Shown: positions 11,606-29,808, counted from the stretch's first letter. The stretch: DNA of 45,580 nucleotides from an uncultured bacterium (GCA_965603135.1 CBFDBV010000001.1:1-45580), one strand, 5' to 3'. Translations and numbers: made by a program. Notes: generated by a model from the letters alone, not told the origin.

Positions 11606-14600
11606 GTGATCGTGTTGCAGAGGGATCGCCTCCTTCTGACACCTGTTGTAGTGATGGCCGCCGCAATCATCCTGGTTACCTGTGCCGACTCCTTTAGTGC
11701 CCCATCGCCGTTGAAGTACCCCTACGCGGGGGGCATTATGCGTACAGGCCCGCACGGCGAGAGGCTTCTGCCCTCCGTCGGGCCAGGGCCCCGGATAGGG
11801 ACGGTGGGGCGTCGGTACCTAGGAATGGAGCGCCCCGACCTGTTCGCGCACCTACGCGCAAAGCAGGGGCCAGGGCCTATCCCGGACTTCCAGCTCACGC
11901 CTACCGCTACCGCCAGTGAGGAACTGTACTCCTTCTCGGCTCCCTACGGTGAGTTGAACCGGATAGTCATCTCCAGCAACGGCGTGGATGACGACGGCGA
12001 TGGGCAGTTCGACCCGGGCGCGACCACGCAGGATGGCACCTTCAACCTCTGGATGCTGCGGGTGGACGGGTCGCAGGTAGCGCAAATCACCAACATGGCG
12101 GGCGATGAGCTGTACCCAGCCTTCAGCCCCGGTGCCCGACTCATAGCCTTCTCCTCCAACACCGGCGGTGTCTGGCAGATCTACACCGTTGAGGTGCTCA
12201 CCGGGGTCGTCACCCAGATAACCTCGAGCCCGGGCAACAAGTACGAGCCCACCTGGTCACCGGATTCCAACTGGCTCGTGTTCAGCGGCGATGAGGCCGG
12301 GAACCGTGACCTCTACATCATCCCCACCGACGGCTCTCTGCTTCCCCAGCAGATAACCACCAATCCTGCCGACGAGACGCAGCCGACGTGGGTGCCAACG
12401 GGCGCTGCCGGCGGCGTGCCGATACTTCTCACGCGCGAGGGCGCGGGCGGTACCGGCAGCCGCGTCTTCGGCATTAGCTCAAACGGCTCGAATGAAACTC
12501 AACTGAGTGACGGCGGCGGCGACCCCCAGGTCAATGACCGGGACCCGGCGTGGCGGCATAACGGCGCGATGATCGCCTTTTCGTCGGACCGGCTGACCGA
12601 GGCCACCGACCTGGACCGGGATTTCAACATCTGGACCATGAGTTCAGCGGGGGAGACCGGGGCGCTGGCTGCCACTCTGCGCAGTAACCTCGACCCCGAG
12701 GACGTGCAGGACGACCGCTATCCCTGCTTCAACCCGGGGCTGAATCCACGGGAGCCGATCCGGGTATTCTTCACCTCCTGGCGGCAGGACGCAGCAGGCG
12801 CTGAGCCGGACATCTGGCGGCTGGAGGCGGCTGACCCGGTGCCGCCGGACCTGATGGACCTGCCCTCGCTGCAGTGGCCGCGCGAAGACTACGACCGCTA
12901 TCGGGCGCCGGGCTCCGAGATAACGGTGTACGCGCAGGTCTTCGACCGTGACAGCGGCGTGGCGCAGGTGGTCGCGGAGTTCAAGGACCCCGACTCGCCC
13001 GAGGACGATAGCCAGGGAATAGATCACAAGCAATTCATTTACACGTCCACCGGGTACTATCGCTCGATCACTAGCATTCCCGGGACGATCGCGTTCGAGG
13101 TGGACTGCGACACTGTGGGTAACGCGCAACTGTTTGACGACGGGGGGCCGGACAGCGGGGACGCCGTGGCTGGCGACGGGATTTTCACGGGCAAGTGGAC
13201 GACGCCGATGTCCCCGAGCGACTACATCATTGACATCCACGTGGCCGACAACGCTGGCAATCAATTCGAGTACGACGACGTCTATGGCCTCACCACCCAG
13301 ATGTTCGAGCCCAAGACCAACGTGCTCTTCGTGGACGACTACTGTGAGGGTCAAGCCTTCCCATGGATGGCCAGCGGAGCGAACAACGACTGTCCCACAC
13401 AGGCCCCGGTGGAGAGCTACTATACTACAAACTGGGGCGACTGCGACGCGTGCTCCAGTACCGCCTACAATACCTTCCGCAGCGGCATACATGGGAACGG
13501 GTGGTTGGGAGAGCCGTACGATATATGGCGGATCATCTGCCGCGGGCCGGTAACCATTACGGACCTCGTCTACTACCTGCCTACCAAGGAAGTGCAGCTT
13601 ACCGTGCCGGATCTGACCGGCACGCGCGAGGTGCGTATCGCAGACCGCGCCGTGGTGTGGGCAGCCCCGCACACCGGCGACACCTGGGTAGCGTCGGGCA
13701 GTCTGGTGGATGCGACGATGCAGGCGACCTTAGCGAACTTCCTCGACCGCGGCGGCCGGCTCATGACCTCAGGCCAAGACATAGGCTTTGCCCTCACACT
13801 TGACGGTACTGTCCAGAACAACTTCTTCGCCAACTATCTGCACGCCAGCTATATCACCGACTCTGTTATCGCACCTAGTAACGGCGGAAGCTGTCCCTGG
13901 TGTTTTTTCGGTCCGTCTCTTGTTAGTGCATCACATCCCGAAATCCAGGGTGTTGCCGACGACCCAGTGGCTCGGCACCCAGGCTGGAACCCATATCACG
14001 ATCCCCCCCTCCTGTTCGCAAACGGGTGGTGGATACACGAACGTGTCTGTTATCCCCAAGATTCCGCCCTCTGTACGGTGTGGCCGGACGGCATTGACGC
14101 TATAGGCGGAGCCACGGTCACTCACAACTACGTTTCTACGGCAGCCGAGGTGGCTGGACTGCGCTACGCGGACCCCGCCGGCGGGTACCGCGTCGTGTAC
14201 TTCGCGTGGGGCTTTGAGCAAATGCATCGTGTGCACCAAGTAGAGACTAACTGGCCTTACGTATGCCGGAACTATCGCGCCAAGCTCATGCACAATACCC
14301 TCTGCTGGCTGCGCACCGGTGGCTTCCAGGGCCGGGTTCTGTCAATAAGCGACGGGAACCAACCTGTCGACGACCCGACACCGATCGTGCAAGTGCGCCA
14401 GGGCAACACCGTCATCGCGGCGGTGCAGTGCGAGGAGGACGGCCGTTACGTTATGGGTGGGCTGCCGCCTGGGGTCTACAGTATGAGTGCCCACCGGCCC
14501 GGGTTTGAGATTGACCACCGGGACGCCGACCGGACGCATGGCGGGCTCAATTATCCGGTAGTTGACTTCGCCATTGTCCGAGCCGAGCCGGGGGCGATCC

Positions 14601-16810
14601 GGGGCACGGTGACCTCGGCGGCGACCGGAGAGCCGCTGGCAGCGGTGGAGGTGTGCGCCTACCAGGTGCCCGTGCCTGAGCCGGAAGACGGCGATGGCAA
14701 CGGCGGGACCGCTTCCGCATCCGCGCCCGCACAGGATGGCGACGGCGATGGCGAACTGGGCGACTTGATAGACTGCACGACGACTGCGGCGGACGGGACC
14801 TATATGATCGGCAATGTCCCGCCCGGCGATGTGGATGTGGTTGCCGATGGGACCGATATCGGCTACGGGACCGAGACGCAGAGGACGACCGTGACCAGCG
14901 GCAACACCAACACCGTTGACTTCGCCCTGGAGGCGGCGCCGGGCGTCATTGTCGCGACCGTGACCGACGAGGATGGCAATCCGATCCAGGATGCGCTTGT
15001 GGAGGTGCTGTTGGGCGCTATTGTGGCGGCCAGCGGCACTACCGATGAGAACGGCGAGGCGCGCATCGAGGTCGAGCCAGGCAGCTACTCGGTGGAGGCG
15101 GAGGCCGCCGGCTACGAGCGGTCCGCGGGCCAGGGAGTTGCGGTCGCCGCGGGCGAAGAGGTTGACATAGCCATCACTCTTCAGCAGCAAGCGGACGGTG
15201 GGCTGTCGGGGCTGATCACGCGGGCAGTGAGCGGCGAGGCGGTCGGAGGCATCACTGTGGAGCTGCTGAGCATCAGCGGGGACACGATCCTGGCCAGCAC
15301 CCAGACCAGCGCCACCGTGACCGATCCGCCCGGAGCCGCGCTCCCGTACAACTACGAGTTCGTAGATGCGAACGGTCAACCGAATGTGCCCACGGGGCAG
15401 GTCATCGTGAGGCCGGACCCGGTGGGCTTCAGCGCCACCCCGCTGCAGCAGATCGTGCGCGTCGAGACCGACCAGGTGACGGATAGCGTGAACTTTACGC
15501 TGAGCAGCATTCACACGTTCCCGGCCGTGCTTCAGTTGATGTCGCTGCCGTTCGACTATCCGGCCACGGACCCGGCGACGGTGCTGGGCGTGCCGGCCAA
15601 CGACCTGAAGATGGCGGCCTTTGAGCCGATTGACGGGCGCTATCACGTGTATCCATCCGCTCCGGCGGACCGGTTCCGCTTGGGCGTAGGCTACTGGCTC
15701 AAGCTCGATGAGATACGCGAACTCTCGCAGCAGGGAATAGAGGCCGGGGACACCTGCGACATCGCGCTGCGGCTCGGGCAGTCGGGCTGGAACATTGTGG
15801 GGGACTTCTTCAGGGCGACCGTTGACTTCTACGCGCTCAACATCGTGGACGGGAACGGCGTGGAGCGCTCGATGCAAGAGGCGCTGGCGGCCGGCCTGGT
15901 GCGCAGCCCGCTGTTTGCGTATGTGCTCGGGGGCTACCAGACGTCGGCGGTGCTGGAGCCGTACGTGGGCTACTGGCTGAAGGTGGCCGACGACGTCTGG
16001 CTGATCGGTGACCGAACCACGGTCACGCTCGCGGCGGGCGAGGCGCCGGCGCGGGCGGCGGTGCTAGCGCCGGAGGACGGATGGCTGCTGCCGCTGGTGG
16101 TGAGCGCCGGGGGCATGCAGGACGCCGCCACCTTCATCGGCTGCGCGGCCAGCGCCAGCGATGGCTTCGATGTGGGCCTGGATGTGCCCAAGCCACCGCC
16201 GCCGGACATGGGGCCGAATGTGTACGCGGCCATCGAACACGGGGACTGGGGCAGCGAAAGTGGAGCCTACGCGGTTGACGTGCGCTCTGCTGCGACGGAT
16301 AATGCGACGTGGCGCCTCAGGATCTCGTGCGAGGGCGCGCAGACGGTGAGTGTGCGCTGGCCCGATATGTCAGGGGTGCCGACAGAGGCGCGGCCCGTCC
16401 TGAGCGACCCGGCAGCAGGCAGGCTGGTGTATATGCGAACCGCGCAGGGCTACCAGTTCAAGCCGCGCGGGGGCAGCCGCATCCTCGAGATCAGGCTGGG
16501 CGGGGATGCGCAGCCGGGGATGGTCGTTTCGGGGCTGGCGACGAGCGCAGCCGGGAACGGGACCGAGATATCATACACACTCTCCTCGGACGCCGAGGTC
16601 GAGGTTACGGTGCTCAACATCGCGGGGCGGTTGGTGCGGACACTGGTCAGTTCAGCCGCCCAGCCGGCCGGCGCCCAGCGCGTCGTGTGGAACGGCGCGA
16701 ACAACGCCGGGGTCAGGGCGCCGAGCGGGATGTATCTGATCGTGGTGAGGGCAAGAGCAGAAGACGGCCAGGAGGCGCAAGCCATCGGGCCGCTGACGGT
16801 AGGACCCTAG
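11606..16810 (+). CDS. Giant secreted/lipoprotein-like multidomain protein (protein A): TolB/PD40 beta-propeller + Ig-like + Cys-rich domain + CarboxypepD_reg repeats + shared C-terminal module
   Basis: Signal/lipobox-like N-terminus (AAAIILVTC|ADS). PD40 repeats (YPAFSPGARLIAFSS, EPTWSPDSNWLVFSG, DPAWRHNGAMIAFSSDR). Ig-like segment with DDGGPDSGDAVAGDGIFTG. Carboxypeptidase-regulatory-like repeats (DGRYVMGGLPPGVYSMSAHRPGFE, ADGTYMIGNVPPGDVDV, ENGEARIEVEPGSYSVEAEAAGYE). C-terminal FlgD-Ig/T9SS-CTD-like sandwich (EVEVTVLNIAGRLVRTL...GMYLIVVRARAEDGQ). GTG start; alternatives exist at 11612 and 11615. Confidence 0.85.
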   Translation: MIVLQRDRLLLTPVVVMAAAIILVTCADSFSAPSPLKYPYAGGIMRTGPHGERLLPSVGPGPRIGTVGRRYLGMERPDLFAHLRAKQGPGPIPDFQLTPTATASEELYSFSAPYGELNRIVISSNGVDDDGDGQFDPGATTQDGTFNLWMLRVDGSQVAQITNMAGDELYPAFSPGARLIAFSSNTGGVWQIYTVEVLTGVVTQITSSPGNKYEPTWSPDSNWLVFSGDEAGNRDLYIIPTDGSLLPQQITTNPADETQPTWVPTGAAGGVPILLTREGAGGTGSRVFGISSNGSNETQLSDGGGDPQVNDRDPAWRHNGAMIAFSSDRLTEATDLDRDFNIWTMSSAGETGALAATLRSNLDPEDVQDDRYPCFNPGLNPREPIRVFFTSWRQDAAGAEPDIWRLEAADPVPPDLMDLPSLQWPREDYDRYRAPGSEITVYAQVFDRDSGVAQVVAEFKDPDSPEDDSQGIDHKQFIYTSTGYYRSITSIPGTIAFEVDCDTVGNAQLFDDGGPDSGDAVAGDGIFTGKWTTPMSPSDYIIDIHVADNAGNQFEYDDVYGLTTQMFEPKTNVLFVDDYCEGQAFPWMASGANNDCPTQAPVESYYTTNWGDCDACSSTAYNTFRSGIHGNGWLGEPYDIWRIICRGPVTITDLVYYLPTKEVQLTVPDLTGTREVRIADRAVVWAAPHTGDTWVASGSLVDATMQATLANFLDRGGRLMTSGQDIGFALTLDGTVQNNFFANYLHASYITDSVIAPSNGGSCPWCFFGPSLVSASHPEIQGVADDPVARHPGWNPYHDPPLLFANGWWIHERVCYPQDSALCTVWPDGIDAIGGATVTHNYVSTAAEVAGLRYADPAGGYRVVYFAWGFEQMHRVHQVETNWPYVCRNYRAKLMHNTLCWLRTGGFQGRVLSISDGNQPVDDPTPIVQVRQGNTVIAAVQCEEDGRYVMGGLPPGVYSMSAHRPGFEIDHRDADRTHGGLNYPVVDFAIVRAEPGAIRGTVTSAATGEPLAAVEVCAYQVPVPEPEDGDGNGGTASASAPAQDGDGDGELGDLIDCTTTAADGTYMIGNVPPGDVDVVADGTDIGYGTETQRTTVTSGNTNTVDFALEAAPGVIVATVTDEDGNPIQDALVEVLLGAIVAASGTTDENGEARIEVEPGSYSVEAEAAGYERSAGQGVAVAAGEEVDIAITLQQQADGGLSGLITRAVSGEAVGGITVELLSISGDTILASTQTSATVTDPPGAALPYNYEFVDANGQPNVPTGQVIVRPDPVGFSATPLQQIVRVETDQVTDSVNFTLSSIHTFPAVLQLMSLPFDYPATDPATVLGVPANDLKMAAFEPIDGRYHVYPSAPADRFRLGVGYWLKLDEIRELSQQGIEAGDTCDIALRLGQSGWNIVGDFFRATVDFYALNIVDGNGVERSMQEALAAGLVRSPLFAYVLGGYQTSAVLEPYVGYWLKVADDVWLIGDRTTVTLAAGEAPARAAVLAPEDGWLLPLVVSAGGMQDAATFIGCAASASDGFDVGLDVPKPPPPDMGPNVYAAIEHGDWGSESGAYAVDVRSAATDNATWRLRISCEGAQTVSVRWPDMSGVPTEARPVLSDPAAGRLVYMRTAQGYQFKPRGGSRILEIRLGGDAQPGMVVSGLATSAAGNGTEISYTLSSDAEVEVTVLNIAGRLVRTLVSSAAQPAGAQRVVWNGANNAGVRAPSGMYLIVVRARAEDGQEAQAIGPLTVGP

Positions 16811-16818
16811 CAGAGGAT

Positions 16819-16858
16819 GGGGATGGGGACAGTCACCTAAGGTGACTGTCCCCCCCTC
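16819..16858 (+). repeat. Palindromic element family 2, copy 1 (13-bp perfect stem); possible terminator after protein A
   Basis: GGGGAT-GGGGACAGTCACC-TAA-GGTGACTGTCCCC-CCTCC. Stem arms at 16825-16837 and 16841-16853. No T-tract follows. Confidence 0.75.
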
Positions 16859-16895
16859 CGCAACCAGGCGTGTGTCGGGAGGGAGAACTGCGAGC

Positions 16896-18815
16896 ATGCA
16901 CAGTCTACGTGGTAGTCTGATATGGCGATATGTCGCGATCTACGTCGCAGCTTCGATGGCGGTACCGTACGCAGTAGTCGGCTTCCCGGCAAATGCAGGG
17001 GCACAGCCGCAGCCGGTGGTCAGGACGGTGACCTGCATTGTGCTGCCTTTGCTGGACCCGACGGGCTTGGATACCGAGGTGCTCAGCGAGAAGGCCACCG
17101 ACGCCATGGCTCTGGCCCTCGAGGACTCGCGCGAGTTCGTCGTCACCTCCAAGCGCGACCTGGAGCGGGAGCTGGGGAACCTGGGCATGACGACGCCGCT
17201 CTCCGTCGAGGAGCAGGTGCGGCTCGCCAAGCGTCTCGACGTGGAGAAGGTCCTGACCGGACGGGTGACGGCGCTGGCGGTAGACGGGCGCACCGGGGAG
17301 TGTGCCGTCAAACTGCAAGTGAGAGTGCTGGATACTGCCACGGTGGAGTACCTCCAGGGGACGGAGGTGGCGATCAGGACGAAGGTAGTACCGGGATGGA
17401 CCGGGGACGAGGGCCAGGTCATCAACGAGGCACTGCGGCAGGCCGCTGAGACGGTCACCATGCAGATGCTGGGAGGCCGGATAACGACGGGCTACGTCAC
17501 CTCGGTGAACGATGTCGGGGTCGCGATCATCAATGTGGGCGCGGGGGACGGCGTGCTAGCGGGGACAGAGATGGTGCTGATGCGGCCCACCTATCAGAAG
17601 GACCTGGACGTGATGACAACGGTGAAGGTGGGTACGGTGGCCGTCGGCAAAGTGGCGTCGGATATGTGCTACGCCAGGCCCGTCGCCGGCGGCAGGGCAA
17701 AGGTGGGCGACAGGGCGTACGCCCTCTACAAGCCGCCGGTGCGGTTGGCGCTTGCGCGGCGGTCCAAAGGTATCAGCAAGGCCGCGACGTTGGTGGCGGC
17801 TCTGGGACTGGTGTTCGCGCTGGTGGAGGTGGGGTCAGGCGAGCATGTCGGCGGTGCGCCCGAAGGGGTCTGCGCGAATCTCTATCAGCAGTCGCCCGGC
17901 GATGAGGCGGTCATCAGGATACACGTGCCAAATCAGTGGGTGCCGCTGACTGAGCAGATACATGGGTGGCTGTTCTTCCGTAAAGAAGGGACGCCGAGCC
18001 TGGCACTGTCGCCCGAGAACCTGGTCGGGGTGGTGGACGAGTCGCGGCTGCCGGGGAACGTGTGGGACGACTATCCTGAGTCGGTGGCTGACCTTCAGAT
18101 AGCCTACGGGTTCATCTACTACAACGAGGAGGGGGAGCAGGAGGACGGGGATGTTGACATCGTCTACAATCATCCCCCGCTGGAGGAAGGGTCAACCTAC
18201 TACTACCGAGTGCGCCGGATCACGGAGCCGCAGTACCCGGCAGGCAGCGGCGCGCCGATCACCGCACAACAAGTGGGCACCCAGCAGCAGGTGTTCGTGG
18301 AGCCCTCCATAGACGTGGACCCGTACGACGCTCTGAGCGAAGGCAGCGCCCCCACCAACCCGGTGACGTACTTCAACCCGACGATACTGCAGTCACCTGA
18401 CGACGGAGCCCAGAACCAGTCTACGACCTCCATCACCTTCACCTGGGACGGGGCTCGGGGGGCGAACGAGTACCTCCTGCAAGTGTTCCCGGACGACGAC
18501 CCGGACTGCCTGCGCAACGCGGTCCATCAGAGTCCGGTGATGCGGCAGGGCACGGCTGGGACGATGCACTGGACCATAGACGCGAACTTCACGGCGAACA
18601 GCAGGTTCTACTGGAGAGTGGGCGCGCGGCGCTCGGGCGAGGCGGAGCCGGTGAACGGGTTCGGCAACCAGACGGGGTGGCTCTTCAGCTCGACCCGGAG
18701 CTTCAGGACGGCCGTTGCGCCACCGCCGCCGCCCGGCACGAGTTCAGCGAGCGGGCAGGCGGGCGTCACCGTGCGGCACGGCTTCTTCACACTGCCGCGT
18801 TACGAACATGAGTGA
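16896..18815 (+). CDS. Bitopic envelope protein B1: signal/anchor + LpoB/CsgG/TolB_N-like alpha/beta domain + beta-barrel-like domain + TM helix + two FN3/Ig-like domains
   Basis: ATG 16896 sits after GGGAGGGA; the ORF is open from 16842, inside the palindrome. N-terminal hydrophobic stretch IWRYVAIYVAASMAVPYAVVGFPANAGAQ. LpoB/TolB_N-like pattern (CIVLPLLDPTG...ATDAMALALEDSREFVVTSKRDLEREL...VEKVLTGRV). Internal TM RRSKGISKAATLVAALGLVFALVEVG. FN3-like signatures YYYRVRRI and FTWDGARGANEYLLQV...FYWRVGA. Confidence 0.7.
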   Translation: MHSLRGSLIWRYVAIYVAASMAVPYAVVGFPANAGAQPQPVVRTVTCIVLPLLDPTGLDTEVLSEKATDAMALALEDSREFVVTSKRDLERELGNLGMTTPLSVEEQVRLAKRLDVEKVLTGRVTALAVDGRTGECAVKLQVRVLDTATVEYLQGTEVAIRTKVVPGWTGDEGQVINEALRQAAETVTMQMLGGRITTGYVTSVNDVGVAIINVGAGDGVLAGTEMVLMRPTYQKDLDVMTTVKVGTVAVGKVASDMCYARPVAGGRAKVGDRAYALYKPPVRLALARRSKGISKAATLVAALGLVFALVEVGSGEHVGGAPEGVCANLYQQSPGDEAVIRIHVPNQWVPLTEQIHGWLFFRKEGTPSLALSPENLVGVVDESRLPGNVWDDYPESVADLQIAYGFIYYNEEGEQEDGDVDIVYNHPPLEEGSTYYYRVRRITEPQYPAGSGAPITAQQVGTQQQVFVEPSIDVDPYDALSEGSAPTNPVTYFNPTILQSPDDGAQNQSTTSITFTWDGARGANEYLLQVFPDDDPDCLRNAVHQSPVMRQGTAGTMHWTIDANFTANSRFYWRVGARRSGEAEPVNGFGNQTGWLFSSTRSFRTAVAPPPPPGTSSASGQAGVTVRHGFFTLPRYEHE

Positions 18816-18880
18816 GACGCCGAGCCCGCCGACGGGGATGTTGCGGAGGTGCGGCAACCGGGCGCGAGAGCAGGGCTTAT

Positions 18881-20209: not shown

Positions 20210-20232
20210 TTGCAGCAGGCGCTCCAAGGCTC

Positions 20233-20272
20233 GGGGGCGGGACAGTGACCCAAGGTGACTGTCCCCATCCCC
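20233..20272 (-). repeat. Palindromic element family 2, copy 2 (inverted relative to copy 1)
   Basis: Minus strand reads GGGGAT-GGGGACAGTCACC-TTG-GGTCACTGTCCC-GCCCCC. The 19-nt 5' part GGGGATGGGGACAGTCACC is identical to copy 1. The stem has one mismatch. Confidence 0.75.
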
Positions 20273-20289: not shown

Positions 20290-23200
20290 GTGAGTCGGCT
20301 TCGTCACCGATATGTCTCCCCTTATCTCGTTGCACTGGCACTGATCCTGTCGGCGACGTCAGGGGTGGGAACGGGGTGGGCGGCCCAGGGCACCGCGCTG
20401 GAGGACCTGGCCGGGCCGTTGCGGACGCTGGCGGTGGCAGCAGCACGCGGGGAGGTGCTGCCCTTCGCGTTCCCGCTGCCTGCCAAGGGGCCCGAGGACA
20501 TGGTGCTGGTGGTGGTGGAGTTCCGCAGCGAGGCAGCCGCGGCCAACACCTCGCTGGCGCCCTACGGGGGACAGGTGCAGATACGGCGTGACCGGCGCGT
20601 GCAGGCTTTGCTGCCGGCGAGCAGCCTGTCGGCAGTGGCGGGCCTGCCGCAAGTATCGCAGGTGCGGCCGCCCCGGTATATGTACCCGCTCCAGGGCTAC
20701 GGGGCGAACTACAGCGAAGGAGTGCAGTTGTGCGGAGCGACCGCATACCACGCGGCAGGGATGTTCGGCGCCGGTGCGGACGTGGCAATACTTGACATGG
20801 GCTTTGCCGATTACGCCAACGCAGAGATACCGCCGGGCGTGAGTACCATCTCGTTCGCCTCCGGCGGGACAATGGGCACGGACTACCACGGCACTGCGTG
20901 CGCCGAGATCGTCGCGGACATGGCGCCGATGTGCAATATGACGCTCATCGCGGTTGACACGGATATGTCCGTGGAGATGGCTACGGAGTACGTGGTCAAC
21001 CAGGGCTTCGATGTCAGCTTGATGTCGCTGGGCAGCTTTGGGGGGCCCTACGACGGCACGCACCCGGAGTCGCAGGAGGTCAACCGCGCGCGCGCGGCTG
21101 GGCTGTTCTGGGTGAACTCGGCCGGGAACCACGCCGAGCGCCACTACCAGGGGCAGTTCACTGATGCAGATGGCGACGGCCTGAACGAGTTCGGCGGCGG
21201 CGACGAGACGATTGATGTCTACCTGTTCCCCGGCGTCTTCCAGGCGTTCCTTAGCTGGTATCAGACCACTCCGACCGGACTGACCAACCACGACTTCGAC
21301 CTGGTGCTGGTTGACGGGTCCGATGCGGAGATCGCGCGCTCGGGCTACAGCCAGAACGGGGACGATCCACCGGCGGACGCGCTGCTGGCCACGATAGCTG
21401 TGGAGGGCCAGTACGGTCTGAAAATCGAGTACTATGCAGGACCCGCCAACCCGGGGGACTTCTTCCAGCTCTTCCTGCCGGACTATGACGTGGAGACCCA
21501 GCATCAGGTCCCCGAGTCGAGCTTGCTCATCCCGGCCGAAGCGACGGGCGCCTACGCGGTAGGCGCCACGCGCGGGGCGGTAGACCCTAACGCGACCGTG
21601 ATGGTGCCCATAGACGGGTTGGAGCCTTTCAGCTCCCAGGGGCCGGTGGCGGGCCATCCGGAGATCATCAAGCCCAACATAACCGCGCCGGATGCGGTGA
21701 CAACGAGCCTAGCAGCGCAGGACCCGGGCCTCTCTCCGTTCTACGGTACGTCAGCAGCGGCACCGCACGTGGCGGGTGCGGCCGCGCTGGTGTTCTCTGA
21801 GGACGCGCTGAGAACCGCCGATGAGGTCGAGAAGATACTCAATGACCTGGCGTTGGACCTGCCCGGGGAGCCGGAGCCCGATCCCAACAATCAGTACGGT
21901 GAGGGTCGTCTGCGGCTGCGGGCGGGCGTGGACAGCCGGGCGCCGACGATAACGATCGCGTTCCCGCGCCACGGCGAGACCATCACAACCGCGACGCCGA
22001 CGCTCACCGCCTTCATCCAGGACGATGGCAGCGGCGTTGACCCGACCACGATCAGGATAGAGCTGAATCAGATAGAGGTCTACAATGGCAGCAGCCCCGG
22101 CCAGCAGCCCGACCCCTACGATGCGGCCACGGGCAGGCTGTCATGGCCGGACCCCGATGGTGACTGGTGGAACGCGAACGGCCCACTGGCCCACACGAAC
22201 CACATGATCATCATAGACTGCTCGGACTACTCGGCGAACGAGGCGACGAGCGCAGTCACGAACTTCCGCGTGGCCTCGGCGACCATCCCCGGAGGCGTGC
22301 ATATCGTATCGTTCCCGTACCGCGATCTGGCGGTAACCGACCCGAGCGTGGTTCTGGGCACGCCGCTGGCGGACCTGGCGATGGTGCGCTGGTGGCCGGA
22401 GGACGAGGGTAAGCTCAAGTATCACTTCTATCCCGACACGCGGGCGAGCCTGGTGCCGCCGGATTGCACGCAGGCGAATATGGACGATCGCACGGTGCCG
22501 TATCCGCCGGCAGGGCTGGCGTATTTCTTGAGCCTGCCGCAGACGGCGGTGCTGGCGATAGAGGGGATGACCCTGGACGATATCCCCAGCACGCACATCA
22601 GGCTCTATTACGGGCAACATCGGCCTCGCGGCTGGAATCTCATCGGCAATCCCTATGAGCAGCCTGTGAACTGGGGCACCGTGCAGTTCGTGACCGATGG
22701 CGTGCGCCAGGACCTGCGCGAGGCGATTGATGCGGGGGTGACGGAGGGGGTGCTGTTCGACTACGTGGGCCCGAGCGGCGGACAGGGCGGCTACTACAGC
22801 TTCACGACGGACCCGACGGCCGGGGCGCTGGAGCCGATGAAGGGCTACTGGCTGCACGTGAACCAGGACACGCGGGTTCTCGTCTACGGCGGCGGCATGG
22901 GCACTGCGGCACAGCCGACGAGTGCGCAGCCCCAGGCCGCAGCCGATGGCTGGCTGGTTAGACTGTGCGTGCGCGCGGGCGGGTATCAAGACCCGAGCAA
23001 CTACGTCGGCGTCAGCTCGGCCGCCAGCGCGGGATATGACCCGGCCCACGATGTGCCGGAGCCGCCGGCGTTGGTGGGGACGCTCCAGATGTATATGCCG
23101 CGACCGGGCTGGGGGAGGCACGCGGGGCGCTACGCCAAGGACGTAAGAGGAACAACGGACAGCGGTCAGTGGGATGTCGAGGTGCTCTGCGAACTGGCTG

Positions 23201-23685
23201 ACAGCGAGGTCGAGATCACCTGGCCGCAGTTGAACGCCCAGGTGCCCGGCGAGGTGAAGCTGGTTCTGGAGGACCTGGACGGCGGCAGGCAGGTGTATAT
23301 GCGGACTGCCTCGGCATATCGCTTCCGCAGCGGGCCTGAGGGGTGTGTGCGCCACCTGAGAATCCGGGCCGAGACGGGGAGCGACCGGATGCTGACGCTG
23401 AGCGGCGTGGCGGCGGCGAGGGCGGCCGGAGGCGGGGCGGTGTTCACCTACGCGGTCTCGAGGACGGCGGAGGTGACGGTCGAGGTGAGGAACATCGCGG
23501 GCCGGCTGGTGAAGATGTTCACGCCGCGACGGGTTGAGGGTGGCGGGCAGCAGAGCCTGGTCTGGAACGGGATGAGCCAGTTCGGCAGCCCGGTTCCGGC
23601 GGGCCGCTACCTGGTGCGGCTCACGGCGCGAGCGGAAGATGGGCAGACCGTGCAGGGGATCCGGCCGTTCGAGATTATGCGATAA
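20290..23685 (+). CDS. Secreted subtilisin-family serine protease (S8) carrying the shared C-terminal module
   Basis: GTG 20290 sits 7 nt after AAGGAGGAG. Signal peptide YLVALALILSATSGVGTGWAAQG. Catalytic triad contexts GADVAILDMGF (Asp), DYHGTACAEIVADMAP (His), FYGTSAAAPHVAGAAALV (Ser), with oxyanion VNSAGNHA. Ig-like insert APTITIAFPRHGETITTATPTLTAFIQDDGSGVDPTTIRIEL. C-terminal module 22285-23682. Confidence 0.9.
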   Translation: MSRLRHRYVSPYLVALALILSATSGVGTGWAAQGTALEDLAGPLRTLAVAAARGEVLPFAFPLPAKGPEDMVLVVVEFRSEAAAANTSLAPYGGQVQIRRDRRVQALLPASSLSAVAGLPQVSQVRPPRYMYPLQGYGANYSEGVQLCGATAYHAAGMFGAGADVAILDMGFADYANAEIPPGVSTISFASGGTMGTDYHGTACAEIVADMAPMCNMTLIAVDTDMSVEMATEYVVNQGFDVSLMSLGSFGGPYDGTHPESQEVNRARAAGLFWVNSAGNHAERHYQGQFTDADGDGLNEFGGGDETIDVYLFPGVFQAFLSWYQTTPTGLTNHDFDLVLVDGSDAEIARSGYSQNGDDPPADALLATIAVEGQYGLKIEYYAGPANPGDFFQLFLPDYDVETQHQVPESSLLIPAEATGAYAVGATRGAVDPNATVMVPIDGLEPFSSQGPVAGHPEIIKPNITAPDAVTTSLAAQDPGLSPFYGTSAAAPHVAGAAALVFSEDALRTADEVEKILNDLALDLPGEPEPDPNNQYGEGRLRLRAGVDSRAPTITIAFPRHGETITTATPTLTAFIQDDGSGVDPTTIRIELNQIEVYNGSSPGQQPDPYDAATGRLSWPDPDGDWWNANGPLAHTNHMIIIDCSDYSANEATSAVTNFRVASATIPGGVHIVSFPYRDLAVTDPSVVLGTPLADLAMVRWWPEDEGKLKYHFYPDTRASLVPPDCTQANMDDRTVPYPPAGLAYFLSLPQTAVLAIEGMTLDDIPSTHIRLYYGQHRPRGWNLIGNPYEQPVNWGTVQFVTDGVRQDLREAIDAGVTEGVLFDYVGPSGGQGGYYSFTTDPTAGALEPMKGYWLHVNQDTRVLVYGGGMGTAAQPTSAQPQAAADGWLVRLCVRAGGYQDPSNYVGVSSAASAGYDPAHDVPEPPALVGTLQMYMPRPGWGRHAGRYAKDVRGTTDSGQWDVEVLCELADSEVEITWPQLNAQVPGEVKLVLEDLDGGRQVYMRTASAYRFRSGPEGCVRHLRIRAETGSDRMLTLSGVAAARAAGGGAVFTYAVSRTAEVTVEVRNIAGRLVKMFTPRRVEGGGQQSLVWNGMSQFGSPVPAGRYLVRLTARAEDGQTVQGIRPFEIMR

Positions 23686-23716
23686 TCGCCTGGGTACGAG
23701 AGGAGCTGACTGCCCG

Positions 23717-26578
23717 GTGGCATGGCAAGGCAATCACTGGAGCAGAATTGCAGCAAAGCAGTTGGCGCTGTCGGGATGGGTGTTCTGCGCACTGCTGCTT
23801 GCGTCGCACGTCGCCCAGGCGCAGACCTATGCAATCGAGGTTATGCATCCAGCGGGCCTCACGCGGCTGCTCGTGGCCGACCCCAGGCTGATCCAGGTCG
23901 GCACCACCGGCACCCCTCCCCGGCCGACCTATGTCTATCGGCCGGCGGGGCGCTTCCAACTGTGGACCGGCTCCACCGTAGCGGCCGGTGGTAGCCCTCT
24001 GGTAGCGGGCGACGAGAACCTGCCGATCGCCAGCGCGGCGTACCTAGGCGGCACCACCTGGAACTTGCTGGACTTCACCTCCAAGCTGACGATCTCGGTG
24101 GACTACCAGCAAGGAACCGGCACCGGTGGCCTCTTCGACATCCACGACCTGATGTACGGGCAGTCGGCGACGACGGACCCCGCGGCCCTGCCCGTGTGGT
24201 GGCAACAGGCGCCGGTGGCCGGCGCGCGCGACGTATCGGGAATCGCCTACCTTGACCCGACCGGGGCGGACCCGGTGGCGGGAGCGCCGATGCTGCGCGT
24301 CCGGCACACCTTCGCCCTGGTGCACGATGCGGTGATGCTGGAGTACATCGTCTATAACGACACCGCGGCCTCACACGCCGTCGGACTGCGAGTGATGATT
24401 GACGCCCGGTTCGGCGGAGCCTCCGATCGGGACGGCACCTACATCGTGCTGGATGATGGCTCGGTGATCTCGGCCGAAGCGAAGATGCCTGACCCGAACT
24501 ACCCGGGTCAGGTTATGCCCAAGACCTGGGTGAGCTACGACGACGTGGACAACCCGCTGGTGGCCGTGAGGGGGACGGTGGATGCGGCGGAAGTGCACAA
24601 CGCGAGCATAGCGACCGAGAGTGCCGGCCTGCCCGACGAGATTGGCTTCGGGCAGTACCGGAACATCGGGATGACGAATCAGTTCGATTTCGTGCCTAAC
24701 CCTGGCGCCGCCCTGACCGGCGAGGACTGGGCCTACGCGGTGAAGTGGGAGGAGCGCCAGCTCGGGCCCGGTCAGAGCCGCCGCTATGTCACGTACTATG
24801 GTCTGGGCGCGGCCGCGGTTGACTACGATCCGCCGTACGCGCTGGCGGCGTATGCGCCGGCGAAGCTGAATGTGGTGGCCGCGGATGACCCCTCGACGCC
24901 GCAGGTGGAGCAGTACTACCTGACGGATCAGAGTGGGCAGTCGCCCTTCCCGCTGACGGCGCTACTGGACAACTTCGGGGCGGGGCCGATCATCAATGCG
25001 GGCGTGCGCATCAGTCTCCCCTCCGGGCTCGAGCTTTCGCCGGACACGCAACCGCGCACCATCAACCTGGGCGTGATAAACCGAAATCAGGCGCCGCTGC
25101 CGCAGGCGCAGTGGATGGTGCGGGCCACGGCCCTGCGTCCGGGGTGGGCCGAGGTGAAGTTCACCGGCCCCATGGGCAAGGTCGTGAGCAGGACGATCAG
25201 CATCCCGGCGATCCCGGTCATATCGCCGCTGCCCTCGCTGGTGGGCCTGGAGATGCTCTCGGTGCCGTATGAGTTTGTCAACTCGGATGCGTCAAACGTC
25301 TTTGGCAGCCTGACGGACTCGGTATTCCCGGGCGGGCCGGTGGCGCTGTGGCGGTGGAACCCGACCAGTCAGGATTACAGGGCGTATCCGGATCCGTGGA
25401 CCGGGAACATCGCGCCGGGCAGGGGCTACTGGCTGCTGAACCAGAACCGGGAGAGCGTGGTGCTGCCGCCGACGGCGCAGCCGGTCCCGGCCAACCAGAC
25501 CTACGGGGTGCCGCTGGAGGCCGGCTGGAACCAGATCGGCAATCCCTTCGTGGTGCCGCTGGGCTTCTACAAGATACGGGTGATCGGGCCGCAGGGCGTT
25601 GAGTGGTCCATGGCCGATGCGATCACGCGAGGCCTGCTGCTGCCCGTGCTGTACGCGTATGACGCGGAAGCGAACGAGTACACCTGGGCGACGTCAATGC
25701 AGCAGACGGAGGTTGTGCCCTACCACGGGTACTGGCTGCTGAGCTACGCGGACATAACGCTGCTGTTCCCGCCGCCGACGTTGTTTGGGCCGGCGTCAGT
25801 GGCTGAAGCGACCGTGCCCGGGGATGAGGACGACGGGTGGCGGGTGGGCCTGGAGGTGGCGGCAGCGGGTCAGAGCCGAACGGGACGCAGCTTCGGCGTC
25901 TCTGCGAGCGCGGAGAACGGCGTGGACCTTGCCGATGTCCCAAGCCCACCGTCCGTGTTCAGGCCAGGCCCGACGCTGGACGCGTTCTTCACGATGGGCG
26001 CAGACTTCAGCGGCGCTCCCTACCTGGTGGATGTCAAGGCAGATGGCGGAGGCGAGCGGACCTGGGCCTTCACGGTCGTGGCCGAGGCCGCGGGCGCGCC
26101 GGTGACAATCAGGTGGCCCTCCCTGTCCGCGGAGCTGCCCAGGGATCTGGTGGCGACGCTGGAGGATGTGAGCGCGGGACGCAGGACGTACATGCGCACG
26201 AGCGGCGCGTACACGTACAACCCCGGCGTGGGCGGCGCGCGGCAGTTCAGGGTCCTGGTGCGGCCCCGAGCGGGGGCAACCCTTGGGCTGACGGGCGTGA
26301 CCTGCGCGCAGGTGGACGTGGGTGGGGTCGCGGTCGCTTACACGCTGAACGCCGAGGCGAAGGTTGACGTGGAGGTGCGCAACATCGCGGGCCGAATCGT
26401 GCGCCGGGTGGCCGTGGACAAGGCCTGCGCAGCCGGACAGAACACAGTGGTGTGGTCCGGCGTGGACGAGCGCGGGATGAGGGTGCCCGCGGGGCTGTAT
26501 GTGGTGCAGGTGACGGCGCGGTCGCCTGATACGGGCGAGAGTATGAGCGTGATTCGCACCGCGCAAGTGTGGCGATAG
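23717..26578 (+). CDS. Secreted protein of unknown function (protein D) carrying the shared C-terminal module
   Basis: GTG 23717 sits about 10 nt after GAGAGGAG. The ORF is open from 23639 but that would overlap the S8 gene. Signal peptide LALSGWVFCALLLASHVAQA|Q. In the ~500-aa N-terminal region I recognise no family. C-terminal module 25232-26575 (GYWLL, GWNQIGNPF, HGYWLL, IRWPSL, YMRTSGAYTY, VEVRNIAGRIVRR). Confidence 0.75.
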   Translation: MAWQGNHWSRIAAKQLALSGWVFCALLLASHVAQAQTYAIEVMHPAGLTRLLVADPRLIQVGTTGTPPRPTYVYRPAGRFQLWTGSTVAAGGSPLVAGDENLPIASAAYLGGTTWNLLDFTSKLTISVDYQQGTGTGGLFDIHDLMYGQSATTDPAALPVWWQQAPVAGARDVSGIAYLDPTGADPVAGAPMLRVRHTFALVHDAVMLEYIVYNDTAASHAVGLRVMIDARFGGASDRDGTYIVLDDGSVISAEAKMPDPNYPGQVMPKTWVSYDDVDNPLVAVRGTVDAAEVHNASIATESAGLPDEIGFGQYRNIGMTNQFDFVPNPGAALTGEDWAYAVKWEERQLGPGQSRRYVTYYGLGAAAVDYDPPYALAAYAPAKLNVVAADDPSTPQVEQYYLTDQSGQSPFPLTALLDNFGAGPIINAGVRISLPSGLELSPDTQPRTINLGVINRNQAPLPQAQWMVRATALRPGWAEVKFTGPMGKVVSRTISIPAIPVISPLPSLVGLEMLSVPYEFVNSDASNVFGSLTDSVFPGGPVALWRWNPTSQDYRAYPDPWTGNIAPGRGYWLLNQNRESVVLPPTAQPVPANQTYGVPLEAGWNQIGNPFVVPLGFYKIRVIGPQGVEWSMADAITRGLLLPVLYAYDAEANEYTWATSMQQTEVVPYHGYWLLSYADITLLFPPPTLFGPASVAEATVPGDEDDGWRVGLEVAAAGQSRTGRSFGVSASAENGVDLADVPSPPSVFRPGPTLDAFFTMGADFSGAPYLVDVKADGGGERTWAFTVVAEAAGAPVTIRWPSLSAELPRDLVATLEDVSAGRRTYMRTSGAYTYNPGVGGARQFRVLVRPRAGATLGLTGVTCAQVDVGGVAVAYTLNAEAKVDVEVRNIAGRIVRRVAVDKACAAGQNTVVWSGVDERGMRVPAGLYVVQVTARSPDTGESMSVIRTAQVWR

Positions 26579-26651
26579 GCGGTCCTGGACTTTGGGCGGG
26601 CCGGCAGGAGATGGGGTCACACCAGAGCCGAGCAAATAGGGGAAATGCACG

Positions 26652-27719
26652 ATGACAGCGATCAGATCGAGCAAGCTGGCGCGCCCGGTGAGCATCCTGT
26701 TGATGGCCGCGATGATGGCCCTGTCACTGCCGGTCGGGTTTGTGACGCCGGCAGAGGCACAAGCGGTGGCAGGGATGCTCCTGCTTTTCCCGGTGTTGGA
26801 CAGAAGTGATGGCGGCCATCCGGACGCTGCGGACCGGATGACCTCGGCGCTGCAAATGGCGATCGCGGAGGCCACGGGCCTGCGCTGCGCGGAGTTCTCG
26901 GCCAGCTCCCCGATGGTCAGGCGCGCGGTGAAGGAGGGGCAGATCCGCTCGGTGGACGTCGAGGCTGAGGTGGCCGATCCCGTCAAGGCCATCCAGATCG
27001 GCTACGCGCTTGGAGTGGACGAGGTGTGCCTGGCGATGATAACCTCCATCACGGTTCAGGAGGAGCCTCGGCGTTTCGAGGTGGTGCTGGCCGGGCAGAC
27101 CTACGACGTAGCCTCGAATGTTGACCTGGAGAGCAGGCAGGTGGTGGAGAAGCCGGTGGTGAGCAGCAGCTTCGGGGTTTCGGGCCAGAGTCTGGAGAGA
27201 GCGGGCTACACGGGCAGCGACAGCCCGCTGCTGCACGAGGCGATCAAGAAGGCGGCCTGGAAGGCCGCCCAGGTGCTCGCCGGCAAGCCGGCGGCAGAGA
27301 TGGCGGGGGTCGCGCGCAAGCGATCCTCCAACACCTGGAAGTGGATCATCGCGGGCTTGATCGTGGCAGGCCTGGCAATGGCGGCGCATGACTCCACCAG
27401 CCACCCGGCCACCGGCTACTCGCCGGACGCGGTGGCCCCGGTGCCGCTGTCAATGGACATTGAGCCCACGAGCATCCGACTGCACTGGCAGGCCCCGCCG
27501 GGAACATCGCTGGTGGTGCTGCGCTACCAGATACAGCGCGCGGTGAATGGCACCGCGTGGAACTTCATTGACAACGGCAACGTTGACGCGAACGACACCA
27601 GCTTCGCGGACTTCAACGTCACCGGTAGCAACACCTACGCCTACCGCATCCGGGCCCAGTACACCACGTCCGGGCCCTCGGCGTGGGCGAACTTCGATCA
27701 GGTGACCTTCCCGGATTGA
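26652..27719 (+). CDS. Bitopic envelope protein B2 (shorter paralogue-like counterpart of B1): signal + LpoB/TolB_N-like domain + TM + one FN3 domain
   Basis: Signal VSILLMAAMMALSLPVGFVTPAEA|QA. Alpha/beta domain (LLLFPVLDRSDG...MTSALQMAIAEATGLRCAEF...VDEVCLAMITSI). TM ARKRSSNTWKWIIAGLIVAGLAMAA. FN3 (IRLHWQAPPGTSLVVLRYQIQRAVNGTAW...YAYRIRAQYTTSGPSAW). Confidence 0.7.
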   Translation: MTAIRSSKLARPVSILLMAAMMALSLPVGFVTPAEAQAVAGMLLLFPVLDRSDGGHPDAADRMTSALQMAIAEATGLRCAEFSASSPMVRRAVKEGQIRSVDVEAEVADPVKAIQIGYALGVDEVCLAMITSITVQEEPRRFEVVLAGQTYDVASNVDLESRQVVEKPVVSSSFGVSGQSLERAGYTGSDSPLLHEAIKKAAWKAAQVLAGKPAAEMAGVARKRSSNTWKWIIAGLIVAGLAMAAHDSTSHPATGYSPDAVAPVPLSMDIEPTSIRLHWQAPPGTSLVVLRYQIQRAVNGTAWNFIDNGNVDANDTSFADFNVTGSNTYAYRIRAQYTTSGPSAWANFDQVTFPD

Positions 27720-27738
27720 GGTGTTGGACCGAGGCAGA

Positions 27739-29808
27739 ATGTTGCGAGACAGGTTCGGAGACAGCCGCCACCCGCGGGATGGACGCGTTCCGCGGGTGGC
27801 ATCATTTCGCGTCCTGCTCGGCCGCGTCCCCGGCGTGATCTGCATCTCGGTGGTCGTGGTGCTGGCTGGCTGTTGCGAAAGCGCGCGGGCGCAAGTGCCC
27901 GCTCTAGGGCAGGCCAGGATCGAACTATCCGTGACCCCCCGACGAGTCCCCGCCGACGGGAAGTCCATGGCGCAGATTCGGGCCGAGGTGCGCGACCCTC
28001 AAGGGCGACCGGCTGCCGATGGCACGGAGATGCTCTTTCACATAGAGGGCGGTCATTTGAGTCGAGGCGGGGGAGAGCGGCGAACAGACCTCCGAGTGCC
28101 GACGGCGAACGGCTTCGCGGTGGTCTTTGCCAGCAGCACCCAGGTTGGGCGGGCCAGGATTCGGGTCGAGGCGCTGGGGACTGGAAGCTCGAATGAGGTC
28201 TACGTCTACTTCGTGGAGGAGGGCGCCGCAGCGGAAGCGGAAGCGCAAGCGATTCACGTGCGGGGATCGTGGGTCGGCTACGCGATGGACCTGGGGCTCA
28301 TCGAGGCGCGGGACAACGCTGTCATCACATTCGGGGGGCTGCGCATAGAGGCGGACGATGCGGCGCAGGTTGACCCGGTCAGGCTGACAATCAAGGCGAC
28401 CGGAGCAAGAGCCGGGGTGAAGGTCACATCCGGGGAGGCGTCACTGCACGGGCTGGACCTGTACTATGACATCGGGTCCGGCTGGGGAGCGATCAGGTGG
28501 TTCGGCGAGACACAGGAGGAGAGGACATTCTTCGATGGTTACACCCTCGAAGAGATCGAGCCGCCGGCGGAGCTGCCGGAGGAGGCGTTCCAGCTAGATA
28601 CGGCTGATGCTCAGATGTGGGCAATAGCGCGCAGCATCTCGGTGTTCCCCTATGAGAAGCTCGTGCTGCGGCACGCTTCGGTGTACGCGGACGGACAGCG
28701 CGTGATGAAGCTGCTGAAGTACTGGGTGGTCGCGATGCCCGGCTACACGGGGACCACGCACTCGCAGGTGTTCGGGGTCAACTCCGACGGCGACATTGCG
28801 GTTGACTTCCCGTTCTTCTACCGGGTGAGCGAGGAGAGCACCGGGTCAATCAAGCTGCAACACGCGGCGGTGGGCGGCAGTGTGGTGGCGCGCAGCAAGT
28901 GGTCGCTGGCGCTGGAGGAGGCTTACGACAAAGGCGATGCCGAGGGCACGGTGACGGTCAGCGGCCTGCCGCGCGAGGACTGGGGGATGGAGTGGCGGGA
29001 CTCGCGCAGGCTGTGGGGAGGCCGGGAGGGGCACTTCAACGTCTACCTGCCGGAGCATCACAGCGTGTTTGCCGACGCGAGCGTGTATCAGTGGGACGAG
29101 GCCTACCGGCTGAACCTGCGCGCTCACTTTGAGAGGCCCCGGTGGTACGATGAGTCGTACGGCGCAAGCGCGGACTGGCTCACGCACAGCCAGCCGCTTG
29201 GACGATGGAAGGCGAGCTATCGCCTGGGCACCGCGGTCGGGCTGCGGCACTACGCGGGCTTCGACCACGGGCTGGTGGGTGAGCACGAGATCTATGCGGC
29301 ACTGGACTTCCCGCGCAAGCACCTGGACGAGCGGACGACACTGACCCCCACGATCAGCAACCTCTTCGCCTGGGATACGGGCGGCTATCGCCGCGAGAGC
29401 ATACGCGGGCAGCTTCGCCTGCGCCGGGTCATCAGCAGCAGCGCGTCTATGCGGCTCTCCTATACGCCGCAGTTCACCAGCGGGGACCACTCGCGCGGCC
29501 TGGAGCACCTCTTCGGCCTACACGTGCGATGGTATCATGGGGCCCGCTGGCACAGCTACCTGTCAGGCACCTACGAGCTGCCGGACGACGATGCCTACCT
29601 CTACTGGCTGCTCGACTACCACCCCCGCCGGAAGTGGCGCATCGGGCTGGCGGCCTCGTACTACCGGTTCAGCGAGGGGAGCTACGATGACTTCCAGATC
29701 ACGGTCGCGCGGGAGCTGGCCGGCCGCGAGATCGGTCTGCGCTGGTCGGAGGAGCGCGATACCATCTCCCTGGAGCTGGGCGGCTACGGGGGCTTGACCA
29801 CGTTCTGA
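27739..29808 (+). CDS. Lipobox-bearing protein E: Big_1 (invasin/intimin-type Ig) domain + OstA/LptD-like stretch + predicted outer-membrane beta-barrel
   Basis: Lipobox VVVLAGC|CES. Big_1-like ARIELSVTPRRVPADGKSMAQIRAEVRDPQGRPAADGTEMLFHIEGG...GRARIRVEA. The C-terminal ~450 aa is full of alternating amphipathic strands (IRGQLRLRRVISSSASMRLSYTPQF, LFGLHVRWYHGARWHSYLSGTYEL, KWRIGLAASYYRF, ISLELGGYGGLTTF) and ends in Phe, like OMP beta-signals. ATG 27739 sits after GAGG; the ORF is open from GTG 27721. Confidence 0.6.
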   Translation: MLRDRFGDSRHPRDGRVPRVASFRVLLGRVPGVICISVVVVLAGCCESARAQVPALGQARIELSVTPRRVPADGKSMAQIRAEVRDPQGRPAADGTEMLFHIEGGHLSRGGGERRTDLRVPTANGFAVVFASSTQVGRARIRVEALGTGSSNEVYVYFVEEGAAAEAEAQAIHVRGSWVGYAMDLGLIEARDNAVITFGGLRIEADDAAQVDPVRLTIKATGARAGVKVTSGEASLHGLDLYYDIGSGWGAIRWFGETQEERTFFDGYTLEEIEPPAELPEEAFQLDTADAQMWAIARSISVFPYEKLVLRHASVYADGQRVMKLLKYWVVAMPGYTGTTHSQVFGVNSDGDIAVDFPFFYRVSEESTGSIKLQHAAVGGSVVARSKWSLALEEAYDKGDAEGTVTVSGLPREDWGMEWRDSRRLWGGREGHFNVYLPEHHSVFADASVYQWDEAYRLNLRAHFERPRWYDESYGASADWLTHSQPLGRWKASYRLGTAVGLRHYAGFDHGLVGEHEIYAALDFPRKHLDERTTLTPTISNLFAWDTGGYRRESIRGQLRLRRVISSSASMRLSYTPQFTSGDHSRGLEHLFGLHVRWYHGARWHSYLSGTYELPDDDAYLYWLLDYHPRRKWRIGLAASYYRFSEGSYDDFQITVARELAGREIGLRWSEERDTISLELGGYGGLTTF

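Follow-up and report, generated by a model that had tools for sequence, protein, structure and literature searches.

A conserved gene order in Armatimonadota that brings together a predicted LptD-like outer membrane protein, CsgG/LpoB-like proteins and exported proteins with a T9SS-type C-terminal module

The locus described here lies at positions 11606-29808 of a 45,580 nt stretch of DNA from an uncultured bacterium of the phylum Armatimonadota (GCA_965603135.1 CBFDBV010000001.1:1-45580), the whole of which we call the window, and consists of seven genes that we refer to as A, B1, C11, S8, D, B2 and E. Judged by gene content and gene order it is a local, expanded version of an envelope operon found across the phylum, and the conserved core of that operon, on the same comparison, is one or more proteins ending in a shared C-terminal module, a B-type protein and E. 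From its predicted structure and its sequence profile, E is a divergent member of the LptD family or a close structural relative. The parts are of known kinds, namely LptD, cargo with a C-terminal domain (CTD) of the type found in type IX secretion systems (T9SS), CsgG/LpoB-like proteins and peptidases C11 and S8, and it is the conserved combination that was not found in the literature searched: the search on Armatimonadota with FlgD, T9SS or LptD gave no account of this locus. We suggest, tentatively and from sequence comparison, that the module may dock Sec-exported proteins onto an LptD-like outer membrane machinery made up of E and B.

Support for the core comes from a genome scan that took one genome per GTDB species and gave 78 loci, each with its flanking +/-10 kb. 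The open reading frames (ORFs) of these loci were searched with hidden Markov models (HMMs) for the module, B, E and C11; tblastn with the window proteins missed the S8 payload and many of the B and E orthologues in distant classes, which were recovered by Pfam and the HMMs. The association counts cover the 66 Armatimonadota loci with a module gene, and are to be read with the scan pattern in mind, as this was taken from the S8-type module and tilts the sampling towards the core operon. Of 59 informative loci 54 have a B-type gene near the module gene; for the E-type gene the figure is 32 of 44 informative loci. All three, B, module and E, are found together at 35 loci spread across Armatimonadia, Fimbriimonadia and Chthonomonadales. 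The HMM search over the loci found neither B nor E beside the module genes of other phyla. The initial annotation, made from the window sequence alone, had proposed a system of cargo, dedicated outer membrane partners and a CTD peptidase, in which module genes would keep company with B, E and C11 genes. The linkage to B and E stands on these counts, but that to C11 does not, as C11 is found in one clade, and the proposed CTD peptidase falls with it.

Three layouts can be distinguished. The window's Armatimonadia-like clade (L007-L015, L023) has layout (i), A-B-C11-S8-D-B2-E. Layout (ii), A-B-S8-D-(short B2-like)-E, is that of thermophilic Fimbriimonadales and Chthonomonadales, including a metagenome-assembled genome (MAG) assigned to Chthonomonas calidirosea (L042), and here the S8 payload is confirmed by Pfam. 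In layout (iii), found in Fimbriimonadaceae including Fimbriimonas ginsengisoli (L073) and the complete genomes at L059 and L063, B-module-E is followed by a further conserved gene (gene F), and the genes are separated by gaps of 21-36 nt or overlap. Gene F follows or overlaps E and encodes ~600 aa; its product has a hydrophobic N-terminal segment and matches no Pfam family. The gene is at L059:13179-14948, L073:13100-14950 and L045:13528-15363 and at 16 further loci, none of them in the window's clade.

The initial annotation took E for a predicted beta-barrel ending in Phe. Barrel and terminal Phe (...GGLTTF) both stand, but the protein is not a generic barrel, being LptD-like. Its AlphaFold2 (AF2) model, with a predicted local distance difference test (pLDDT) score of 80.8, has the Big_1 domain that Pfam also finds, at residues 60-160 (nt 27919-28212), a beta-jellyroll at 172-332 (28252-28734) and a barrel at 345-681 (28771-29781) with ~22 strands by DSSP. 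In a Foldseek search with this model the best 14 PDB matches were all to LptD, over the full length (E 8e-14 to 5e-10), and were followed by FimD ushers and TonB-dependent transporters. At the sequence level a profile of 22 E orthologues matches LptD of N. gonorrhoeae (7omm_A) at E 5.9e-4, and when Big_1 is left out LptD is the sole PDB sequence match (E 4.5e-3). The aligned stretch runs from the last part of the jellyroll into the first strands of the barrel and has the conserved 'SLPLY...PYY' prolines. Pfam LptD_N is found in 2 of the 22 orthologues, the LptD barrel family PF04453 in none of the 22, and a second homologue search with a broad E profile did not extend the reach. It is the fold matches, together with the sequence match at the junction of jellyroll and barrel, that place E in the LptD family or close to it in structure.

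The public gene call for E is of 613 aa with a start at 27967, inside Big_1, and loses the signal peptide; the start at 27739 is supported by the orthologues, which are of 645-685 aa. The ORF as such spans 27721-29808. The window E has a lipobox-like LAGC, which its orthologues do not share.

That A, S8 and D share a C-terminal module, as initially annotated, is confirmed by BLASTP, which aligns 440-480 aa at 31-36% identity (E 1e-44 to 1e-63; residues 1289-1732 of A, 665-1144 of S8 and 536-979 of D). FlgD_ig (PF13860) is above its 27-bit cutoff in all three (A 45.0, S8 31.3 and D 40.9 bits). In its AF2 model (pLDDT 69.5) the S8 copy is all-beta, with three sandwich domains at residues ~14-220, 238-380 and 388-480, the last of which is FlgD_ig, and its fold matches in the PDB are generic Ig/fn3 stacks (template modelling (TM) score < 0.2), FlgD and the C-terminal domain of PorU.

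An exhaustive profile search gave 1979 representative clusters with the module at E<1e-30, and in nearly all of the best 150 of the 1979 the complete module is at the extreme C-terminus. Among the 159 proteins listed from the module search 40 have A-type, 26 D-type and 25 S8-type payloads, the remainder being fragments or having other payloads. The payload types found fused to the module are unrelated to one another and number at least eight (PD40/CRD, S8, D-type, C11, C39-like, FG-GAP/ASPIC, LVIVD/DUF7619 and Big_1), and the module is therefore a portable unit.

The module also occurs in large proteins of Calditrichota, Bacteroidota, Fidelibacterota, Marinimicrobia, Ignavibacteria and related MAGs, and WOR-3 proteins have a copy without the last domain. 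Alignment with C-termini from phyla that are mostly of the Fibrobacteres-Chlorobi-Bacteroidetes (FCB) group is end to end over 421 columns (hhalign probability 100%, E 6e-54), and 9 of 9 of these C-termini carry TIGR04183, the T9SS type A sorting domain, at up to 47 bits against a cutoff of 23. The CTDs of the window are all below that cutoff (A 17.7 bits, D 14.2 bits, S8 no match), and the NYPNPFNP motif of the T9SS-bearing module copies is missing from A, S8 and D alike. In the module, a homologue of the T9SS type A CTD is preceded by two further beta-sandwich domains. The earlier view of it as a unit about five times longer than a CTD is not upheld, for its length is that of two sandwiches and a CTD homologue, an arrangement present also in the mostly FCB-group phyla. 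As the module-type C-termini of those phyla end in true TIGR04183 domains, the module is not unique to this locus.

The N-terminal payloads of A, S8 and D are unrelated to each other by BLASTP. Pfam finds PD40 (4e-21), three CarboxypepD_reg domains (5e-30) and FlgD_ig (1e-11) in A. The payload part of the A gene (~12000-15000) has a GC content of 0.62 as against 0.66-0.69 in the rest of the window, with a GC skew of about zero. S8 matches PF00082 at 64.2 bits (cutoff 21.8), and the motifs of its Asp/His/Ser triad can be read in the translation as DVAILDMG, HGTACA and GTSAAAPH. The possibility that the S8 payload is clade-specific was rejected, as Pfam finds it at loci of distant classes, where a gene for S8 plus module holds the equivalent position. 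In D the only Pfam match is FlgD_ig, and neither the D payload nor the central region of A has relatives in Pfam or the PDB. It is the D-type module protein that is kept in the minimal B-module-E operons.

The B proteins have an architecture that is common to 13 orthologues: a cleavable signal peptide, a CsgG/LpoB/TolB_N-like domain, a FlgT_C/TsaP-like beta domain, a hydrophobic helix (nt 17781-17837 in B1), two fn3-like domains and a PPPPP tail, the poly-proline being invariant at the C-terminus. The signal peptides are of AxA-Q type and are not lipoboxes. CsgG is matched by 7 of the 13 orthologues (best 3.8e-7) and LpoB by one (1.6e-5); the window B1 gives 15.6 bits on CsgG, for which the cutoff is 20.8, and the Pfam signals for CsgG and fn3 in the window's B1 and B2 are weak. 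B1 and B2 had been called paralogues, and this is borne out, weakly, by BLASTP (E 1e-4); the B-family HMM matches B2 orthologues at 1e-8 to 8e-16. B2 precedes E in the window's clade, and there is a weaker match in thermophilic Fimbriimonadales and Chthonomonadales.

The docking role that we tentatively propose would work as follows. The payload proteins (TolB-like propeller, subtilase and D domain) would leave the cytoplasm by Sec, and the module, as a portable docking unit, would take the payload to the outer membrane and its E/B machinery. There the payload protein would be retained, or handed to the surface, in connection with insertion of lipopolysaccharide (LPS) of the LptD type. It is known that type A CTD cargo of the T9SS is attached to LPS (PMC8545088, PMC12860637), that a Borrelia LptD homologue can handle surface proteins and flips surface lipoproteins (bioRxiv 10.1101/2022.12.21.521298), and that Armatimonadetes make lipid A (PMC4072686). 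The proposal can be taken further, to a new sorting pathway in which Armatimonadota would route or anchor proteins with T9SS-CTD-like modules through a dedicated machinery of divergent LptD (E) and CsgG/LpoB-like protein (B), and which would tie the evolutionary origin of cargo with type A CTDs to the insertion of LPS; in this extended form we regard it as doubtful.

A membrane protein of the Wzy_C/O-antigen-ligase family is encoded at 1409-2641 (+), ~9 kb upstream of the locus, and may be relevant because Cytophaga hutchinsonii needs WaaL to anchor its type A CTD cargo to LPS (PMC12860637). Two other roles for the module proteins were considered. Flipping of lipoproteins in the manner of Borrelia was rejected, as lipoboxes are absent from the module proteins. 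A role in an S-layer or in fimbriae, for which Armatimonas and Fimbriimonas are named, is without support, the fold matches of the module being generic Ig/fn3 stacks. The fimbriae of F. ginsengisoli have been attributed to its abundant type IV pilus genes (PMC4072686).

Several points weigh against the docking role. E is not nearby in 12 of the 44 informative loci, and one Armatimonadota lineage (L016-L019, L022 and L044) carries an ORF of >2000 aa where E would stand; this giant ORF, which follows the D-type gene (L016:14119-21396, L018:10177-16059), has weak Cna_B/cadherin-like matches. Lone module genes are found far from B or E at L039, L046, L047, L053, L071, L077 and L085, and the sampling of loci by the S8-type module pattern favours the core operon. 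In 13 of 13 B orthologues there is a K/R cluster on the N-terminal, exported, side of the helix, the reverse of a normal stop-transfer anchor. On the predicted structure of E, folded propellers would not be able to pass a barrel of ~22 strands. Lastly, E may be the sole LptD of the cell and act on LPS alone.

If E acts on LPS alone the locus could be a stable housekeeping neighbourhood (polA-rpsA-coaE ... uvrBC) with no physical coupling of the products, in which E is the LptD of the LPS translocon and A, S8, D and C11 are ordinary hydrolases, either periplasmic or secreted by Sec and the type II secretion system (T2SS). Membership of E in the LptD family is in keeping with this, as are the housekeeping flanks (polA-rpsA-coaE on one side and uvrB-uvrC on the other), the production of lipid A and large T2SS and type IV pilus repertoire reported for Armatimonadetes (PMC4072686), and the loci without E beside the module genes. 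However the order B-module-E is kept from class to class, with only some tens of nt between the genes, and the triad stays together while its flanks vary: uvrB is the gene after E in the window's clade alone, and Fimbriimonadaceae have gene F in that place. The genome of C. calidirosea has been described as non-operonic (PMC4959169), and that the order is kept even in a species with otherwise dispersed operons argues for functional coupling. An uncoupled neighbourhood is on balance unlikely.

Alternatively the triad could itself be the LPS translocon, with a D-type module protein and/or B as the Armatimonadota counterpart of LptE, and with A and S8 as paralogues that piggyback on it. The invariant minimum of D-type protein, B and E fits this, as does the stable placing of the locus among essential genes. 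LptE cuts both ways: sequence and profile comparisons found no LptE-like gene in the locus, which is in favour, but by the same comparisons none of its proteins matches LptE, and B and D, unlike LptE, are not lipoproteins. The module is also carried by many payloads, and occurs in phyla with the T9SS sorting domain and no E or B nearby. We think this explanation quite unlikely, and retain docking of module proteins on E and B as the reading to be preferred.

In the T9SS-like system of the initial annotation, C11 was a sorting component of clan CD that would remove the CTD as a PorU-like sortase, with B and E as outer membrane partners. C11 is secreted, and is predicted to be catalytically intact, with PF03415 at 81.2 bits (cutoff 25.8) and the catalytic His (GHG) and Cys kept in 8 of 8 orthologues. 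It stands between B1 and the S8 cargo, and the module ends in a CTD homologue with a match to the fold of PorU and FlgD. However the HMM search over locus ORFs finds the stand-alone C11 gene only at L007-L014 and L023 of the window's clade and operons elsewhere are without it, its orthologues are 27-30% identical as against 50-60% for neighbouring genes, and its family differs from the C25-type family of PorU. Other lineages have C11 as a payload domain of module proteins (P0088, P0068, P0101), and at the P0088 locus neither B nor E is nearby. With C11 restricted to a clade and fused to the module elsewhere, a PorU-like sortase role is without comparative support, and the scheme built on it is improbable. 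C11 is a clade-specific extra, and on this comparison is very probably not the sorting enzyme of the operon but most likely another secreted hydrolase or a maturation protease. In P0088 (L085/L086 10001-13018) a Ser is aligned with the catalytic Cys (YDASEM, as against LDCCYG in the window C11), and its C11 domain may be inactive or have a different nucleophile.

That A, S8 and D are ordinary cargo of a canonical T9SS encoded elsewhere in the genome would account for the end-to-end homology of the module with TIGR04183-bearing C-termini of other phyla, but is very improbable, given CTDs that score below the family cutoff and are without NYPNPFNP, reports of T9SS only from the Bacteroidetes/FCB superphylum (PMC5445135, PMC12398890), a genome paper on F. 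ginsengisoli that lists only T2SS, parts of a type IV secretion system (T4SS), Tat and Sec (PMC4072686), and family searches that found none of gldK/L/M/N, sprA, porV, porU and porZ within the 45 kb window.

Even on a conservative reading E is likely to be the LptD of Armatimonadota, for which public records have 'Ig-like domain-containing protein', and the module, B and the D payload now stand as three defined, though uncharacterised, protein families. If the coupling of module proteins to E and B is real it would add a second case, after Borrelia, of an LptD-type machine put to use on proteins, it would explain the role of CTD-like 'T9SS sorting domains' in a phylum not known to have a T9SS, and it would suggest an older, LptD-based counterpart of the CTD-LPS connection of the T9SS. 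The proposal is testable, as a MAG assigned to F. ginsengisoli, a cultured species, has the minimal B-module-E operon (L073), and that assigned to C. calidirosea has a B-S8-D-E version (L042).

With regard to the window itself (67% GC), an ORF check found all seven genes on the + strand, and an identical sequence is present in the public MAG GCA_964450415.1 (contig CAYVEY010000001.1) and in several metagenome contigs. The seven co-directional ORFs of the initial annotation are confirmed, and for five of the seven genes (B1 16896, C11 18881, S8 20290, D 23717 and B2 26652) the public MAG calls have exactly the same start. At these starts the gaps between genes are 19-86 nt, as short as had been described. 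The start of A is ambiguous by up to ~16 codons (GTG 11606/11612, TTG 11615 or ATG 11654). Each of the seven products has an N-terminal hydrophobic segment, in agreement with the exported or membrane nature assigned to them all. The features are listed in the table.

Table. Coordinates of the locus and of the promoter-like site upstream of it, in window numbering
Feature	Position	Strand	Description
Sigma-70-like promoter match with TG extension	11305..11334	+	Consensus match, between two REP-like hairpins
A	11606..16810	+	Signal peptide, PD40/TolB-like propellers, central region, 3 CarboxypepD_reg, module
Shared module of A	15470..16807	+	Two beta-sandwich domains + CTD-like FlgD_ig domain
B1	16896..18815	+	CsgG/LpoB-like, FlgT_C/TsaP-like, helix, 2 fn3-like, poly-Pro tail
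C11	18881..20209	+	Stand-alone secreted clostripain-family cysteine peptidase, PF03415
S8	20290..23685	+	Subtilase PF00082 + Ig-like domain + module
Shared module of S8	22237..23682	+	Copy used for the AF2 model
D	23717..26578	+	~510 aa payload (NEW3-like sandwich only) + module
Shared module of D	25238..26575	+	Identified by BLASTP
B2	26652..27719	+	Short B paralogue: signal peptide, CsgG/LpoB-like region, hydrophobic helix, one fn3
E	27739..29808	+	Divergent LptD-family predicted outer membrane protein, C-terminal Phe

The near-consensus promoter that had been noted ahead of the locus can be found ~270 nt 5' of A as TTGCCT-18-(TG)TATAAT, with 10 of 12 consensus positions, and is to be taken as a consensus match only. 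There was no Rfam match to a riboswitch or leader RNA in the ~270 nt 5' region, the sole Rfam match in the window being a tRNA, and no terminators above chance level were found. A 23 nt hairpin (GTAGGTCGGGCWTCCWGCCCGAC) resembling repetitive extragenic palindromic (REP) elements has three intergenic copies, at 11214-11236 (+), 11351-11373 (+) and 44989-45011 (-), where none is expected by chance, and the first two flank the promoter-like site.

Elsewhere in the window, AccD-like (beta) and AccA (alpha) carboxyltransferase subunits of acetyl-CoA carboxylase are fused in one ORF at 2653-4416 (+). The tRNA, at 4447-4532 (-), is inside the longest ORF (4358-5671, +) of an SppA-like S49 peptidase, which implies that the S49 gene starts downstream of the start of that ORF. 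A gene for a ribosomal protein S1-like protein at 8532-10583 (+) has three near-identical acidic repeats of ~40 aa at its end (EEMAEAPETEAPEEAAATEDEPLAEEEAAEAEAKQAEE...).

Several of the proteins can be compared with components of known systems. A, like PorE (PG1058) of the T9SS, combines a TolB-like PD40 propeller with CarboxypepD_reg. The architecture of PorE is TPR-WD40-CRD-OmpA_C (PMC12773672, PMC12204202), whereas A has no TPR or OmpA_C, is of ~1700 aa and ends in the module, and the likeness is one of domain composition only. C11 belongs with clostripain-family peptidases by its Pfam score and His/Cys dyad, and differs from them in being divergent, secreted and encoded on its own. The N-terminal half of B, with its motif of 'VAVLDFxNxSG' type, resembles proteins of the CsgG/LpoB/TolB_N fold, and the beta domain that follows matches the FlgT and TsaP periplasmic ring proteins (FlgT_C, and TsaP in PDB 3jc8 at 4.7e-4). 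Unlike CsgG and LpoB, B is not a lipoprotein, and it has a central hydrophobic helix, two fn3-like domains and the poly-Pro tail.

The likeness to the T9SS as a whole is that unrelated payloads, mostly hydrolases, share a C-terminal beta-sandwich, and that C-termini ending in TIGR04183 in other phyla are homologous to the module along its entire length. The differences are that the window organism belongs to Armatimonadota, outside the FCB group, that its CTDs do not reach the family cutoff and no core gene is present in the locus, that the barrel linked to the module is LptD-like and is not SprA or PorV, and that the peptidase is of family C11, not C25, and is not conserved with the cargo. 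E in turn has the periplasmic beta-jellyroll and large C-terminal barrel of LptD in the LptDE translocon (PDB 8h1s, 5iv9, 7omm). It differs from LptD in the added N-terminal Big_1 domain, in a barrel of ~22 strands rather than 26, in having no cysteines in the mature protein and no LptE gene found at the locus, and in always being encoded alongside B and a module protein. BB0838 of Borrelia burgdorferi is the precedent for a divergent LptD-family protein whose action is on surface proteins rather than, or besides, LPS (bioRxiv 10.1101/2022.12.21.521298). However its substrates are lipoproteins, while the module proteins discussed here have signal peptides of signal peptidase I type and no conserved lipobox, and Armatimonadetes, by contrast with Borrelia, make lipid A (PMC4072686).

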